A DNA stretch of 61,678 nucleotides, filler included, from Anaerolineae bacterium (GTDB lineage: Bacteria > Chloroflexota > Anaerolineae > Epilineales > Epilineaceae): NCBI GenBank assembly GCA_029262755.1. It is 3 parts of 3 records of this genome, joined end to end, with 100 filler letters (N's around TTAATTAATTAA, not from the genome) between each part and the next. Parts side by side here need not be neighbours in the genome. Positions count along the whole stretch, not along the records: positions 1 to 26,306 come from JAJCYU010000218.1; positions 26,407 to 42,466 come from JAJCYU010000222.1; 1 more part is not named here. One strand, 5' to 3'. Made by a program: the position numbers. Of the stretch, positions 21,455 through 27,400 are shown piece by piece. Every line of letters starts with the position of its first letter. Positions within the stretch are counted from its first letter, which is position 1.

Positions 21455-24400
21455 ACGGTACGCCGGGGGTGCCGGAACCGACGCGCACGCCGGGTGCGTG
21501 GCTGCCGATCGGACTGCGGGGTGTCGGCGGACGGTGACGCATGACGGGTGCCGGGGTTACAATTGCCCGCGTACGCCCCCGTAGCTCAGGGGATAGAGCA
21601 ACGGTTTCCTAAACCGTGTGTCGTAGGTTCGAGTCCTACCGGGGGTACACGTGATGACCCATCCCACATCGTTTGCGGTCTGCATCCGTAATGACGGCTA
21701 TCCGGCTGCGCTCGAGGTGCGAAAGCATTATCGCGTTCTCCCTGATGCAGATGCTGGAGATGCCGGGTTGATCCGGGTCATCGACGAATCGGGGGAGGAC
21801 TATCTCTACCCCACCGAGTTCTTCGTGTCGATCGAGTTACCCCGTACGATCACGGACGTGCTGGAGTCGGCCGCCTAGCGTGTTGACGGTCATGGCATCC
21901 TACAGCCTGTGACTCGCGCCTTCATCAGCTACGCTCACGCCGACGCCGCCTTCGCCACGCGCCTCGCCACCGCGTTGCCGGGGCTGGGCATCGATCCGTG
22001 GATCGACCGCGACGGGATTCACGGCGGCGCACGCTGGAGTTCGTCCATTCAGCAAGCATTGGACGACGCCGACGCGCTGATCCTCGTACTGACCCCGGCC
22101 GCCATGGCCTCGTCCAACGTCGAGGACGAGTGGCAGTACGCGCTCGATCGGGGCAAGCCCGTGCTGCCGGTGCTGCTGGAGCCGACCGACGTCCACTTCC
22201 AGCTCGGACGCATCCAGTACACCGACTTCCATGGCCAGCCCTTCGAAGCCGGGCTCGCGCAGCTGGCGGAGGGCGTGCGGCGAGCGTTGGAGGGCGTGCG
22301 CGCTGACAACGCAGCGAGCGGGGAGGCCGGGCAGGCTGGCGCGGCAGAAGAACACCGCACACGCGCCGGCCTTAGCGCCGCCCGCTCCATCGGCCCGCCT
22401 TCCGGCACCGTCACCTTCCTCTTCACTGACATCGAGGGCAGCACCGTGCGCTGGGAGCAGCATCCCGACGCCATGGGCGCCGCGCTCGAGCGCCACGACG
22501 CCTTGATGCGCGCCGCCGTAGCCGACCATGCCGGCCACGTTTTCAAGACCGTCGGCGATGCGTTCTGCGCCGTCTTCGCCCGTGCCGGTGACGCGCTCGC
22601 CGCCGCGATCGCCGCTCAGCGCGCCGTCGCGGCCCTTGACTGGTCGGCCATGGGCGACGGCTTCCCGCCCCTGGCGGTGCGCATGGCCATCCACACCGGC
22701 GAGGCAACCGAGCGCGACGGCGACTACTTCGGGCCGCCCGTCAACCGCGTGGCGCGGCTGGAGGCCGCCGGCCACGGCGGGCAGCTCCTGCTCTCGGCGC
22801 CGACCTATCACATCGTGCGCGACGCGCTCCCCGAAAGCTTCGCACTCCGCGACTGGGGAGAGCATCGGCTCAAGGACCTGCGCCACAGCGAGCATGTCTT
22901 CCAGGTGGAGGGGCCGGGCCTGCCGACCGTCGAGACCCCACCCAAGACAGCCGAGGCGCTCCACCCGCGGGACCGCGTGTACGTGGTCGACGTGGAGGCG
23001 GACGGTGATCCGGAGGCCCTGGCTTCGGCGGAGTCGGACAGCGGGCCACGTGCCGATCCCGACAGCCCGTGGTCGCGTCTTGAGGCCGCCGTCACCGCCG
23101 ACGCCGGCGAAGCGGTTACCCTGACGCCCGCAGAGGCCACGCAACTCGCCCGCCACAAGCCGATCGATTGGCGCGAGTACCGCCTGGGCCGCATCGCGGA
23201 GTGGAGCCAACCACGCTTCCGGCTCGACGGCCGCTTCGTCGGCCTGACCCTGCTCATCGACCAGGGCGAGGAGTCGGTCGCCGGACGCTGGGCGGCCAAC
23301 GAGGAGCGCTACGAGGACCTTGGCGCGCTGCTGGCGGAGACGAACGAGCCGGCCATCGTCGTTCTCGGTCCACCCGGCGGCGGCAAGTCCACGCTGCTGC
23401 GACGGCTCGAGCTGGACGCGGCCATCGCGGGTCTGCGCGGCGAGAGCGAGGTAGACTCACAAGGCCGTGTCACCTTCTTCATCTCGCTCAATACCTACAA
23501 GCCGGACGAGCCGAGCCAACCTGTACCTTCACCAACTACGTGGCTCTCCGAACGCTGGGCGGCTCGCTCACCCGAGCTCCGTCCCCTCGACACCCTCCTC
23601 GCCGAAGGCCGCGTCACCCTCCTGCTCGACGCGCTCAACGAGATGCCCGCCGCCTCGGAGTCGGACTTCCACGACCGGGTGCGCCTGTGGAAGGACTGGC
23701 TCGTGCGGCTCGTCCACGACCAGCCGGGCAACCGGGTCGTCTTCTCCTGCCGCTCGCTCGACTACAGCCAGCCGCTCTCGACGGCGGATCTCCGCGTGCC
23801 TCAGGTGCGCATCGAGAACCTGACCGACGACCAGGTCCGCGACTTCCTCGCGCTCTACAGCCCCGGACGCTGGCGCGAGATCTGGGCGGCGCTGGAGGGC
23901 AGTCCGCAGCTGGAGGTCCTGCGCAGCCCCTACTTCCTGGCGCTGCTCGTCGAGCAGGTCGAGGCCACGGGCGAGATGCCCACCGGCCGCGCGGCGCTCT
24001 TCACGGGCTTTGTGCGCCAAGCGCTGCGGCGCGAGATCGAGCGCGGCAACACGCTTTTCGAGCCGGGACCGCTACTGGCCGGCCGCGATCTCAAGCGCGT
24101 CGCCGGCTGGAAGTGGAAGACACCCTACGACCTGCCCGAGCGCGGCAGCCTGATCCCGAAGATGGCGACCCTCGCCCACGCGATGCAGACGGATCGGGCC
24201 GACGGCGAAGGCTCGTTGGTGCGCATCGACGTCGACGACGCGCTCGACCTCCTCGACGACCCCAACGACGAGGCGCTGCTGGCGGCCGGTGCGGCGATGG
24301 CGGTGCTGGACGAGGACCAGGCGGCCGAAGAGTTGATGTACATCCACCAGCTCGTGCAGGAGTACTTCGCGGCTCGGCAGCTGGCGCGGGAGCCGGATCC

Positions 24401-27400
24401 GGAGCTTGTTCGGACCGAGTGGCGGGCTTCGGAGATGCGCCCGAGCCTCGATGAAGTGATCGACCGTCTCGACACGGCCGATCCGCTGCCGGCTCTGCCC
24501 GGCACCGGCTGGGAGGAGACGGCGATCTTCGCTGCGGCGATGTCGGAGGACCCGACAGGCTTCTTGCGCAGTGTCATGGAGACGAATCTCGCGCTCGCCG
24601 GCCGTGCCGCCGCGCAGCCGGAGCTGCAGCCGCGCCTGCCGGACGACCTTCTCGACGAGCTGCGGTGGGCGCTCGCGGCGCGCAGCCGCGACACGTCCGC
24701 CGATCTACGCGACCGGATCGCTTGCGGTTATGCCCTCGGCGACCTGGGCGACCCACGCTTTGAGCGCCGCGTCGGTCCGCATGGCGCGTACCTACTCCCC
24801 CCGCTCGTCGTGATTCCCGCGGGGACGTACCCCATCGGGGATGACAAGCCGATCGTGAACCCCCACGGCACATGGACCGGACATGTACCGCGCCACGAGA
24901 TCGAGATCGCGGCCTTCGAGATCGGTCGGTTCCCCGTCACCAACGCGGAGTGGTCTTGCTTCCTGGACGCCGGCGGCTACGAGGACGACCGCTGGTGGGA
25001 TACCCAAGACGCACGTTCTTGGCGCCGCGGCGAGAACACGGCCGCGGGAATTCATGCCGGTGTGAAGGACTTCGTCGCTCGCTGTCGCGCGCACCCCGCG
25101 CTGATCGACGAGCTGCTGGCCGCCGGCTCGTGGGACGAGACCACGTACGAGCGCGGACAGCGCCGACTGGCCATGAGCGAAGCCGAGCTGGACGCCCACC
25201 TGCGCGAGCTATACCCAGGCGGGCGCCTGACCGAGCCGGCCTTTTGGCGCGATCGCCGCCTCAACCATCCGTCGCAGCCGGTGGTCGGCGTGTGCTGGTT
25301 CGAAGCGCGCGCCTACCTGCGCTGGCTCGCCGCGCAGTCAGGTCTGCCCTTCCGGTTGCCGTCCGAGGTTGAGTGGGAGTCCGCGGCACGGGGTGCGGCC
25401 GGCCGCCTCTACGCCTATGGCGACGAGTTCAACCATCTGGCGTGCAACGCCGCCGAGACACACATCCGGCAGACCACGCCGATTGGTGTCTTTCCGGACG
25501 GCGATTCACCGGAGGCGGTCACCGACCTCACCGGCAACGTCTTCGACTGGACATCGAGCGCCTTCGGGCAGAATACCGATTCGACCGAATACCCGTACCC
25601 CTACCTTCCCAGTGACGGTCGGGAGGAGCCGGACCTGCCTGCGACGTGCCTGCGCGTGTTGCGTGGTGGCTCGTGGTATGACGATCGATCGTGCACCCTG
25701 GCTGCCTACCGGGTCAGCGATCTACCCGATGATCGCGATCCTGACAGCGGCTTTCGGGTATGCGTTCGCCGCAGCGCCTCACCCCCGTCCTCCCCGGATC
25801 CTGCGTCCTGAGCTCCTGACTTCCGAAGCTCTAGTCTTCCGAGTCCCTCTGTTGCCGCGGAACGCCGCGACTGTCGAAGACCCCTCCGCCAACGGGTTGC
25901 CGATCTCCAACAGGTTCCGCGTCGGGGTCGTGCAGGTAAATCGAGCGCAGCGTGCCCGTCGCGCCGTCGCGTTCGCCCGGGCCACAGCTCCCGCCCCAGC
26001 CGGATCACTCAGGCCCCAGCCCGTCGAATAGGTCCGCTGCGTCGTAGATCTGCACGCGGCCGGACTCGACCTCCTCGCAAAGTCGTGGGTCGGCGTCGTC
26101 CACGTCGGCGTGGTCCCACGCCGCCTGAAGGATCGAGGCCAGGCCGGGCGACGCATCCTCCAGATAGGGATACTCGTCGAGCACGACCAGCACTCGCTCG
26201 CCTTCGACTCGCCGTGCCAGATAGCGCAAGAAGGATGGCCAGTCGCCGAAGCCCGAGCCCTCACGCAGGGCGTCGTCGACGAATGCCTCGCCGGCCACGT
26301 GACTGANNNNNNNNNNNNNNNNNNNNNNNNNNNNNNNNNNNNNNNNNNNNTTAATTAATTAANNNNNNNNNNNNNNNNNNNNNNNNNNNNNNNNNNNNNN
26401 NNNNNNCAGCGCTTCATCCGCGACTTCTTCGACGAACCGCAGATTCAAGAGGATCTGGCCGGTGGCGCGCTGCGCGTCGGCATGGTCTCCTTCAACAACC
26501 GCGGTCGCCGTTTGGTCAGCCTTACCGAGCAGGGCAAGCGCGCCGCGACGCGTGTCAGCCTATTGCGCGGTGGAGGCTTGACCCGCATCGACATCGGCCT
26601 GCGCACGGCAGAGCGCGTGCTGCAGGACCGCAACCGACGCTACGGCATCCTGCACGACGACGACCGCACCAAGGTCATCGTCGTGATCAGCGACGGCGGC
26701 TTCTGCGACCGCGACCTTCGGGCGCGCGTCCAGAAGGAGATCGAGATCGTCGGTCTCTTCGCGGGCCGCGGCCCCTACAAGCGCCGCATGCGCGACATCG
26801 TCACGGAGAACGAGTACCTGCTCGACCTCAACGCGCGGGCGCTCAAGGAGCTCATGTTCATCTACGGCAAGGACTTCCTCCGCGTCGATCCGGTGAACAT
26901 GGAGACCCTGACGCTCAAGGAGCAGCTGGCCGACACGATGGAGCTGGTCCCCGGATCGGTGTCCAACGGCGGTGTGGTCAACGGCTCGACCATCGAGTGG
27001 GCCTTTGCGCCGCCCGATGCATCCGTGACCGTCACCTACGAGGTCAAACCGCTCCAAGAGGGCTATCTGGACGTCACCGACGAATCAGACGCACTCTGGA
27101 CCGACAACAAGGCGCGCGACGGAAGCCAACCGTTCCCGGACGTCCGGTTGAGCGTAAATTACGATCCACCAACGCCGACGTCGCCACCACCGCCGACCCC
27201 GACGGACGTACCGCCGGATCCGCCGACCGCAACGCCTGAGGTCATCGTCCTCAAGCCCGCGTACCTGCCGGTCGCCTTCCGCGAGGAAGAGAAGCCGGAC
27301 ATCTGCGAACCAAGCCGGCAACGGGTGGATCTTGCCGTTGTGATCGATACGTCGATCTCGATGAGCGATGCTACCTCGCCGGGCGGGCCGCCCAAGATCG

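Follow-up and report, generated by a model that had tools for sequence, protein, structure and literature searches.

A gene at positions 21909..25811 encodes a 1300-residue protein in which a TIR domain, a class III nucleotidyl cyclase, a NACHT NTPase and an FGE-sulfatase (FGS) region follow one another. On balance, we favour its interpretation as a one-gene, cytoplasmic receptor that is NLR-like (STAND/NACHT) and of the "antigen-receptor type"; its oligomerisation would turn on two proximity-dependent enzymes in parallel. The window, that is, the whole stretch of 61,678 nucleotides analysed, joins contigs C218 (1–26306), C222 and C224 of the metagenome-assembled genome (MAG), and the genuine context of the gene is positions 1–26306 alone. 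The following features were delimited:

21909..25811, + strand: whole gene, TIR-cyclase-NACHT-FGS, 1300 aa, GTG start (ORF reading and Pfam)
21921..22265, + strand: TIR domain, aa 5–119 (Pfam TIR_2, 1.7e-27; the genome scan gives the same coordinates)
22266..22400, + strand: TIR-cyclase linker, rich in Ala, Gly and acidic residues and poorly conserved, aa 120–164 (identity comparison)
22401..22907, + strand: class III nucleotidyl cyclase, aa 165–333 (Pfam Guanylate_cyc, 1.3e-14)
23355..23843, + strand: NACHT NTPase, aa 483–645 (Pfam NACHT, 38.3 bits against a cut-off of 26.7)
24798..25760, + strand: FGE-sulfatase/FGS (C-type-lectin-fold) sensor region, aa 964–1284 (Pfam, two stretches)
11081..14449, − strand: TIR-less paralog, cyclase-NACHT-FGS, 1122 aa, on the same contig C218

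Just 10 more open codons lie upstream of the GTG start, and the contig ends 495 nt past the gene. The order of the Pfam domains gives a tripartite layout, with N-terminal effectors, a central NACHT and a C-terminal sensor. The published account of bacterial NACHT proteins, in the part consulted, likewise presents them as tripartite and names both TIR and cNMP cyclase among the N-terminal enzymatic effectors, an agreement that was counted in favour of an NLR-like receptor. As in bacterial NACHT and NLR-related proteins, the NTPase module carries a Walker A (GPPGGGKST, 487–495) and a Walker B motif (LLLDALNE, 571–578), the residues of which are invariant or nearly so across 10 homologs. The better of the two FGE-sulfatase stretches spans residues 1109–1284 (Pfam, 1.7e-41), and FGS is the most divergent folded part of the protein, with its FGS_C segment 45–70% identical among homologs versus 67–78% for NACHT. 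No TM-like segment was observed in P0001, P0003, P0005 or P0009, and a single borderline hydrophobic window was present in P0004 (within the TIR) and in P0008 (within the cyclase domain). All NCBIfam matches of the protein fall far under the curated cut-offs. The linker at residues 120–164 shares 18–49% identity with paralogs and homologs, compared with 56–90% for the flanking domains, and the position of the cyclase motif ranges from 160 to 179 among homologs. Such a linker, variable in length and poorly conserved, fits two modules that are tethered independently.

Within the TIR domain, the putative catalytic residue Glu74 sits in the motif S68-x-N70-V-E-D-E74-W and is unchanged in 12/12 aligned TIRs and in 80/80 relatives. 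The TIR profile matched the solved structures of Cat1, TIR-STING and AbTir at 7.3e-9 to 3.3e-6, and Glu74 aligns with the Glu of the S-x-W-x-x-x-E motif in Cat1 (9mud) and TIR-STING (6wt6). The domain thus combines a TIR fold with the conserved Glu, the sequence signature of a TIR NADase, and NAD+ cleavage is predicted; the catalytic role of Glu74 is assigned by alignment and by analogy with TIR NADases, not from a structure. Many TIR NADases possess a W-x-x-x-E motif with a conserved Trp. Throughout the present lineage this Trp is replaced by Asn70, so the chemistry may not be the same as in the TIR NADases known so far.

The cyclase domain displays the motifs FLFTDIEGST, KTVGDA, RMAIHTG and GDYFGPPVNRVAR, and its closest solved structure is Ma1120 (4wp3, 1.1e-19). 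Little or no variation was seen across 10 homologs at D174, K213, D217, R258, D272, N279 and R283. We take D174 and D217 to be the metal-binding Asp residues, K213/D272 the substrate-specifying pair and N279/R283 the transition-state residues. The Lys213/Asp272 pair is presumably of the purine (adenine) type, from which adenine specificity is predicted. The residues associated with catalytic competence are therefore present, and an active cyclase working as a head-to-tail dimer is predicted. Catalytic residues had been left aside in the preliminary description; the TIR Glu74 and the metal-binding Asp, Lys/Asp and Asn/Arg positions of the cyclase are all intact, with the exception of one paralog (P0008, contig C223). 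Its cyclase is degenerate, with E, R and A at three canonical positions, and its TIR Glu is intact, suggesting that C223, at least, can do without the cyclase output.

The same domain order was recovered in P0003 (C277), in P0008 and on contig C30, where the gene is truncated at the contig end. P0009 (C255) is a TPR form, TIR-cyclase-AAA_22/AAA_16-TPR, that is, TIR-cyclase-STAND-TPR; the architecture and paralog family outlined in the preliminary description are thereby confirmed. Its view of the TIR as a modular addition to a cyclase-NACHT-FGS core also agrees with the paralogs that have the core without a TIR, on C60, on C328 and at 11081–14449 (−) of C218, together with several contig-end fragments. 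The cyclase-NACHT-FGS paralogs of the MAG are 51–57% identical to the 1300-residue protein. Among the 10 TIR_2 matches of the MAG, 8 are closely related to one another, 7 of them aligning at 60–90% identity to this TIR and the eighth, that of C30, belonging to the same lineage. Among the MAG paralogs no segment is better conserved than the TIR (90% and 81%). At 65–69% identity, it also heads two STAND-TPR proteins that have no cyclase (C8 and C315), and in other Chloroflexota the lineage heads TIR-TM-FGS, TIR-STAND-TPR and TIR-nSTAND1-WD40 proteins. The cyclase, for its part, is found in every one of the 17 family genomes on NACHT-FGS proteins that have no TIR. With each domain also present on proteins that lack the other, both modules are self-sufficient. 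The TIR is a mobile module of the N-terminus, which cyclase-NACHT-FGS paralogs have gained, lost or swapped.

All 17 family genomes carry cyclase-STAND genes, a single genome giving up to 19 matches, and the cyclase part reaches up to 79% identity in other Chloroflexota. In agreement with the earlier sampling of relatives, none of the 16 other family genomes (10 other genera) has the TIR-cyclase tandem, and none gives a match starting before query residue 52; the lone match starting there is a cyclase-STAND-TPR protein whose ORF begins at the cyclase. The tandem was also absent from 80 reference-genome loci holding this TIR lineage. At least five metagenome proteins carry the full TIR-cyclase-NACHT-FGS architecture, and the statement that the tandem occurs only in this genome was too strong. 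A second TIR lineage, 26–29% identical to this one, precedes the cyclase in cyclase-STAND-TPR proteins (P0165, P0307 and P0363), which probably represent an independent fusion, judging from this divergence. The distribution is patchy and turnover rapid. The TIR-cyclase-NACHT-FGS protein elaborates on a known kind of protein in a way that is rare but not unique.

No neighbouring gene is conserved at the five loci, whose neighbours are unrelated, and this points to a one-gene system. The loci are set among housekeeping genes, with no recognisable defence island. Two candidate assignments were rejected. For Thoeris, the ThsB models matched weakly (PADLOC, 3.2e-6; NCBIfam ThcB4, 39 bits against a cut-off of 220) and no ThsA-type effector adjoins the gene. 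For an FGS receptor diversified by a diversity-generating retroelement (DGR), the MAG, 84% complete, yielded 0 RVT_1 reverse transcriptase matches and no template repeat, the last 700 nt of the gene matching paralogs alone at 65–74% identity.

In the mechanism that we favour, the C-terminal FGS (lectin-fold) region would bind a ligand, probably a non-self molecule of phage or other origin, and thereby free the NACHT NTPase to oligomerise. NACHT oligomerisation, already suggested in the preliminary description, is a plausible switch; it would pack the N-termini together, so that two self-association-dependent enzymes would fire in parallel and not in series. The TIRs would build a composite NAD+-cleaving site around Glu74, resulting in NAD+ depletion or an ADPR-type signal. 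The class III cyclase domains would pair as an obligate head-to-tail dimer and convert ATP to cAMP, which could signal to the many cNMP-binding proteins of the MAG or drain ATP. A literature search found no biochemical or phage data on any cyclase-NACHT protein.

It is unlikely that the TIR serves instead for assembly or as an adaptor, without catalysis, in the manner of animal TLR/MyD88, leaving the cyclase as the sole enzymatic output. In such a role it would nucleate or stabilise the oligomer, or recruit other TIR proteins of the MAG; the 8 close relatives among the 10 TIR_2 matches, the strong conservation of the TIR among paralogs and the Asn in place of Trp are consistent with this. However, adaptor TIRs need not retain the NADase Glu, which is invariant here in 92/92 sequences, and in C223 it is the cyclase that decays and not the TIR. 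We also regard as improbable a housekeeping, non-immune function, in which the TIR would be an accessory and a ligand-gated STAND adenylyl cyclase, resembling mycobacterial cyclase-STAND-TPR proteins, would feed a cNMP network. The occurrence of cyclase-STAND genes in every genome of the family, the housekeeping neighbours and a rich cNMP-binding repertoire (Crp-type regulators and MscS-, NDH2-, aldehyde-dehydrogenase-, patatin- and methyltransferase-linked forms) would suit this function. The many divergent paralogs, which vary most at the sensor end, and the patchy, rapidly turned-over distribution argue against it, as does the joint presence of TIR, NACHT and FGS, hallmarks of conflict systems in the consulted portions of the surveys cited below.

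Beyond parallel firing, the TIR and the cyclase might be coupled into one catalytic or regulatory unit and not merely co-housed, which we consider quite doubtful. The pair has been fused at least twice, from TIR lineages as distant as those described above, and a TIR-cyclase tandem is also present on an AP-GTPase-COR protein, so the pair could be one unit. The obligate cyclase dimer could, for instance, act as a template for a TIR-TIR interface, or the TIR could take ATP or the cyclase product as acceptor and yield a hybrid nucleotide signal as yet undescribed in bacteria. A one-chain form of Pycsar/Pucsar, the serial signalling proposed in the preliminary description, in which the TIR would respond to the product made by the cyclase of its own chain or oligomer, is very unlikely. 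These systems do indeed use a TIR NADase together with a class III-type cyclase, as far as the consulted text describes them, and the repeated placement of TIR before cyclase, with either of two TIR lineages and on a further NTPase chassis as well, hints at a functional link. The earlier statement that PADLOC defence models hit only the TIR also needs amendment, as PycC matches the cyclase weakly and partially (aa 158–267, 22.7 bits, E 1.1e-5). However, Pycsar/Pucsar comprise two genes, a cyclase and a CNBD-TIR or 3TM effector, and their TIR effectors (PycTIR/PucTIR) sense the cyclic nucleotide through the CNBD, according to the sections of the literature consulted. The present protein has neither feature, with no cNMP_binding match at E<=0.01 (Pfam); the 10 TIR_2 and 13 cNMP_binding matches of the MAG lie on separate contigs and never in one ORF, and no CNBD-TIR protein was found there. 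The same TIR also stands on the C8 and C315 proteins, which lack a cyclase, C223 keeps its TIR beside a degenerate cyclase, and the Lys/Asp pair is, we assume, of the adenine type. In addition, STAND-fused cyclases form a clade apart from the Pycsar/Pucsar clade in the consulted part of a 2026 preprint. Finally, an assembly or gene-calling artefact is practically negligible: the MAG is broken into 428 contigs and is 84% complete, but the same uninterrupted ORF arrangement appears on five separate MAG contigs and in at least seven proteins or contigs from other sources.

Animal and plant NLRs are believed to descend from bacterial NLR-like proteins. With TIR and cyclase on one chain, this protein offers a compact system in which to ask whether one oligomerisation event fires two nucleotide enzymes, and whether NAD+ loss and cAMP production are redundant, additive or coupled. 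The natural variants of the MAG (either domain alone, the two together, and the two together with a dead cyclase) represent built-in controls.

Among known systems, the nearest solved relatives by sequence are Ma1120, a class III adenylyl cyclase of Mycobacterium avium, and Cat1, TIR-STING and AbTir. These are stand-alone or otherwise fused, and the TIR described here differs in having Asn for Trp four residues before the Glu. P0165, P0307, P0363 and P0009 share the order TIR, class III cyclase and STAND NTPase followed by a repeat sensor, but the sensor is of the TPR type and the NTPase of the NB-ARC/AAA_22 type. Direct relatives are the ACYC+NACHT+FGS proteins in the supplement of Kaur et al. 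2021 (PMC8195603); a cNMP cyclase-NACHT-FGS is also among the representative bacterial NACHT architectures in the consulted part of Kibby et al. (bioRxiv 2022.07.19.500537). They have in common the cyclase effector, NACHT switch and FGS sensor, but no TIR precedes the cyclase. Conversely, TIR+NACHT+FGS, a term that occurs 55 times in the supplement of Kaur et al., likewise places a TIR as N-terminal effector of a NACHT-FGS receptor, but without an intervening cyclase. The preliminary description had allowed that supplementary tables might hold the TIR-cyclase combination; these two architectures are each single-effector, and the tandem itself is present in one row, AP-GTPase+COR+TIR+ACYC, from a Dehalococcoidia MAG. 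Compared by architecture listing alone, this protein, also from Chloroflexota, shares the TIR-then-cyclase order, with the tandem at the C-terminus of a GTPase-COR chassis versus the N-terminus of NACHT here. As single-effector versions and a TIR-cyclase tandem were already on record, the general picture is unchanged, and the present protein unites both effectors on one NACHT-FGS receptor.

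The coordinates and domain calls of the preliminary description for the protein at 21909-25811 proved correct when the ORF and Pfam analyses were re-run, and the TIR-cyclase-NACHT-FGS architecture as a whole was confirmed (FGS, FGE-sulfatase, a lectin-fold domain and putative sensor). Three separate contigs are joined in the window, C218 (1-26306), C222 (26407-42466) and C224 (42567-61678), with N runs at 26307-26406 and 42467-42566 marking the joins. Genes past 26306 are therefore not neighbours of the TIR-cyclase gene, whose genuine context is the first 26.3 kb only, with the end of C218 lying 495 nt downstream. 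Just 10 extra open codons precede its GTG start, and its G+C content is similar to that of the remainder of C218. The features of C218 are as follows:

11081-14449, minus strand: TIR-less cyclase-NACHT-FGS gene
21534-21563: promoter-like site near tRNA-Arg
21575-21648, plus strand: tRNA-Arg (anticodon CCT), 260 nt upstream of the TIR-cyclase gene
21654-21875, plus strand: 74-aa ORF between tRNA-Arg and the TIR-cyclase gene, no Pfam family
21909-25811, plus strand: TIR-cyclase-NACHT-FGS ORF, GTG start, 1300 aa
aa 5-119 of this protein: TIR_2 (Pfam 1.7e-27)
aa 165-333: Guanylate_cyc (Pfam 1.3e-14)
aa 483-645: NACHT (Pfam 38.3 bits against a cut-off of 26.7)
two stretches of the protein: FGE-sulfatase (Pfam 1.7e-41)

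A MAG-wide search with the whole 1300-aa protein gave 23 matches. The related genes on other contigs were:

C277: TIR-cyclase-NACHT-FGS paralog, 76% identical to the C218 protein
C223, 7830-11726, minus strand: TIR-cyclase-NACHT-FGS paralog (P0008), 69% identical
C30: TIR-cyclase-NACHT-FGS paralog, 72% identical, truncated by the contig end
C255: TIR-cyclase-AAA_22/AAA_16-TPR protein
C60, C328 and fragments at contig ends: TIR-less cyclase-NACHT-FGS genes

Additionally, the same TIR lineage (65-69% identical) heads STAND-TPR proteins without a cyclase on C8 and C315, and the same TIR is N-terminal in a C184 protein truncated by the contig end. TIR only, cyclase only and both thus occur on two kinds of STAND chassis, so that all combinations are present in the MAG. 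An assembly artefact as the source of the fusion was ruled out by the five independent MAG contigs and by copies from outside sources. Two TIR proteins of other kinds were also observed: in one, the C-terminal TIR comes after pentapeptide repeats (C282:4426-5658, plus strand), and the other is 360 aa long with the TIR at its C-terminus (C77:4634-5713, plus strand).

TIR-bearing and TIR-less proteins are intermixed on both the NACHT-core tree and the cyclase tree, and well-supported branches of the NACHT tree require at least four TIR changes. An AU test rejected the nine TIR-bearing rows as one group (p about 3e-56, for a group named after the tree was first seen). The TIRs of these proteins form one lineage (60-90% identical), and the TIR is the best-conserved segment among the MAG paralogs (90% and 81%). 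The proteins are mosaics, as indicated by the uneven identity of P0004, a protein from the collection searches, with 71-82% in TIR, cyclase and NACHT against 41% in the first part of FGS. This pattern is consistent with repeated loss (P0012 and L099, described below), with swapping of N-terminal and sensor modules between paralogs, or with both. Most of the closest TIR relatives from other sources are proteins of 350-660 aa; 5 of the 8 close relatives scanned combine TIR with FGE-sulfatase, and a TM-like segment follows the TIR in 65 of 80. These nearest kin, from 80 reference-genome loci (L018-L097; e.g. L018:5001-6494), constitute a widespread Chloroflexota family with an N-terminal TIR, a TM-like segment, sometimes TSP3 repeats, and a C-terminal FGE-sulfatase. 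The family resembles a Toll-like receptor in topology, but with a lectin-fold ectodomain.

The preliminary description had left the catalytic residues of the cyclase and the TIR as a check, and both sets appear intact in the C218 protein. Among solved structures, the cyclase is closest to Ma1120, a class III adenylyl cyclase (4wp3, 1.1e-19). C218, C277, C30, C255 and the outside homologs all keep intact the motifs FLFTDIEGST, KTVGDA, RMAIHTG and GDYFGPPVNRVAR; across 10 aligned homologs, D217, R258, N279 and R283 are invariant, and D174, K213 and D272 nearly so. We assign D174/K213/D217/D272/N279/R283 to the class III cyclase roles of metal binding (two Asp), adenine specificity (a Lys/Asp pair) and the transition state (Asn/Arg). 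A profile of 12 TIRs matched Cat1 (9mud, 7.3e-9), a Hydra Toll-related TIR, TIR-STING, PdTIR and AbTir. In the profile alignments, Glu74 aligns with the Glu of S-x-W-x-x-x-E in Cat1 and TIR-STING, which is the catalytic residue in TIR NADases. All 12 aligned TIRs and 80/80 relatives from reference genomes have Glu74, and the motif Trp is replaced by Asn70 in all 80 of the latter. Among the aligned homologs, both NACHT Walker motifs are conserved (Walker A, GPPGGGKST; Walker B, LLLDALNE).

The C223 cyclase deviates in its motifs (FTEIDGAS, RSIGDA, GAYVG), and three of its canonical residues are replaced (Asp by Glu, Lys by Arg and Asp by Ala), with the TIR motif intact. It is the most diverged domain of this paralog, 56% identical to the C218 cyclase against 66-81% for the other folded domains. 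In P0363, a TIR-cyclase-STAND-TPR protein whose TIR belongs to a second lineage, Gly (KTIGGAF) stands in place of the cyclase's second metal-binding Asp. Together, these two proteins place cyclase decay next to an intact TIR in both TIR lineages.

The tandem had been reported from this genome alone, a claim that agrees with its relatives and with reference genomes but not with metagenomes and protein collections. Cyclase-STAND matches (E<=1e-20) were found in all 16 other genomes of the family (10 other genera, 1-19 each), none of them a TIR-cyclase tandem. The sole family match starting at query residue 52 (C11 of genome G002) was rejected as a degraded tandem, being a cyclase-STAND-TPR protein whose ORF begins at the cyclase. 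Likewise, when one genome was scanned for each species, 80 loci of this TIR lineage were kept, none with a cyclase in the ORF of the TIR. Among 77 JGI metagenome loci, TIR was followed by cyclase at two, both from a single sample; one is truncated by the contig end, and in the other the TIR is interrupted by an in-frame stop. The latter copy, L099 (frame 3), continues into unrelated sequence past the cyclase and is a pseudogene, a sequencing error or a chimeric contig.

In a collection of 5.8 billion proteins searched with aa 1-345, 9 of the best 120 rows have both Pfam families, four being the MAG's own and five coming from elsewhere (P0004 to P0007 and P0011, 55-73% identical). Four of these five also carry NACHT and FGS; P0006 has NACHT and no FGS. 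A TIR-only query gave both families in 8 of 17 long proteins among the matches listed, and a ninth, P0012, begins at the residue matching Leu79, so that just the second half of the TIR is kept. Within a representative set of 1.84 billion, 2 of the 150 best rows spanned both domains: the 340-aa fragment P0122, and P0165, whose TIR belongs to the second lineage (26-29% identical to the C218 TIR). Three of the 120 listed relatives of that lineage are TIR-cyclase-STAND-TPR proteins (P0165, P0307 and P0363, the last also in NCBI). ESM Atlas matches were cyclase clusters only; in the top-scoring one (0.91), 29% of the members carry DUF4062, a possible lead. From the family, reference-genome, metagenome and protein-collection counts, the tandem is rare and narrowly spread, yet not unique to this genome, and probably has more than one origin. 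Large proteins with repeated effector domains were also seen in the representative set (P0154, P0124, P0127, P0129, P0146, P0133), including one of 1773 aa with seven TIR_2 then WD40, several with three or four tandem cyclase domains (1418-2037 aa), and a 402-aa protein with two TIRs.

The C218 neighbours encode DnaK, a sigma-70 factor, an O-antigen-ligase/TPR protein, cytochrome c, an LVIVD-repeat protein and the TIR-less paralog. Neighbours at the other paralog loci are mutually unrelated (PIN, glyoxalase-like, DUF2272, vWA, AhpC, CorA, collagen-repeat, PA/Reg_prop), and no conserved partner gene was found across five loci. The 74-aa ORF has no copy near other paralogs (best other MAG match E 0.03), and scans of six further loci with paralogs or TIR proteins found no tRNA. 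A tRNA-linked island was rejected, as the tRNA-Arg 3' end (at least 12 nt) is unrepeated in the remaining 4.6 kb of C218. DGR diversification of FGS was also rejected, with no reverse transcriptase in the MAG (84% complete) and no template repeat.

The best-supported reading, which we favour somewhat, is a one-gene NLR-like sensor firing two enzymes in parallel. Ligand binding at FGS would oligomerise the NACHT domain, crowding the N-termini and switching on two self-association-dependent enzymes: TIR assembly would lead to NAD+ cleavage and cyclase dimerisation to cAMP synthesis, as parallel outputs. Two independently tethered modules are suggested by the flexible, poorly conserved TIR-cyclase linker, by the occurrence of each domain alone on the same chassis types, and by the C223 paralog with its apparently dead cyclase yet intact TIR. 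Docking of TIR aa 1-128 with cyclase aa 151-345 scored 0.00 and counts for neither reading. The recurrence of TIR-before-cyclase fusions leaves some room for coupling between the two domains, which we consider unlikely. Less probable still is the serial, Pycsar-like mechanism of the preliminary description, in which the cyclase product activates the TIR of the same protein or oligomer, since its defining receptor domain, a CNBD, was absent from the 1300-aa protein by Pfam; the architecture, the paralog family and NACHT oligomerisation as a plausible switch stand.

The cNMP-binding proteins of the MAG are possible readers of the cyclase product. None of the 13 cNMP_binding hits shares a protein with TIR; they belong to Crp-type regulators and to proteins linked to MscS, NDH2, aldehyde dehydrogenase, patatin, bPH or methyltransferase. 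This set (L182-L191) is unusually varied: CNBDs are fused to MscS, to NDH2, to an aldehyde dehydrogenase or to a methyltransferase, and one protein (C155:244-2535, minus strand) joins two CNBDs to a patatin phospholipase domain and an NTE-type P-loop.

In Kaur et al. 2020 and Kibby et al. (bioRxiv 2022.07.19.500537), FGS is described as an antigen-receptor-type sensor, and the N-terminal effectors given for bacterial NACHT proteins include TIR as well as cNMP cyclases. Entries in the Kaur et al. 2021 supplementary tables (PMC8195603) include ACYC+NACHT+FGS, TIR+NACHT+FGS (55 term hits) and one TIR+TM+FGS. Their sole TIR+ACYC entry is an AP-GTPase+COR+TIR+ACYC row from a Dehalococcoidia MAG, so TIR+ACYC+NACHT is missing from these tables; a term search of supplementary file 1 of Kaur 2020 gave no hit. 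No discussion of a TIR-cyclase fusion on a NACHT protein was found among the papers listed by full-text searching, and Table S1 of Kibby et al., or Table S1 and Figure 1A of the Pucsar preprint, may list this architecture. Section 5 of the 2026 Pucsar preprint places STAND-fused cyclases in 'immune clade 1', apart from the Pycsar/Pucsar clade, and the same preprint describes PycTIR and PucTIR as CNBD-TIR proteins activated via the CNBD. The TIR effectors of Pycsar and Pucsar thus carry a CNBD, whereas the C218 TIR-cyclase protein does not, and the latter is a fresh variation on an already known kind of NLR-like receptor.
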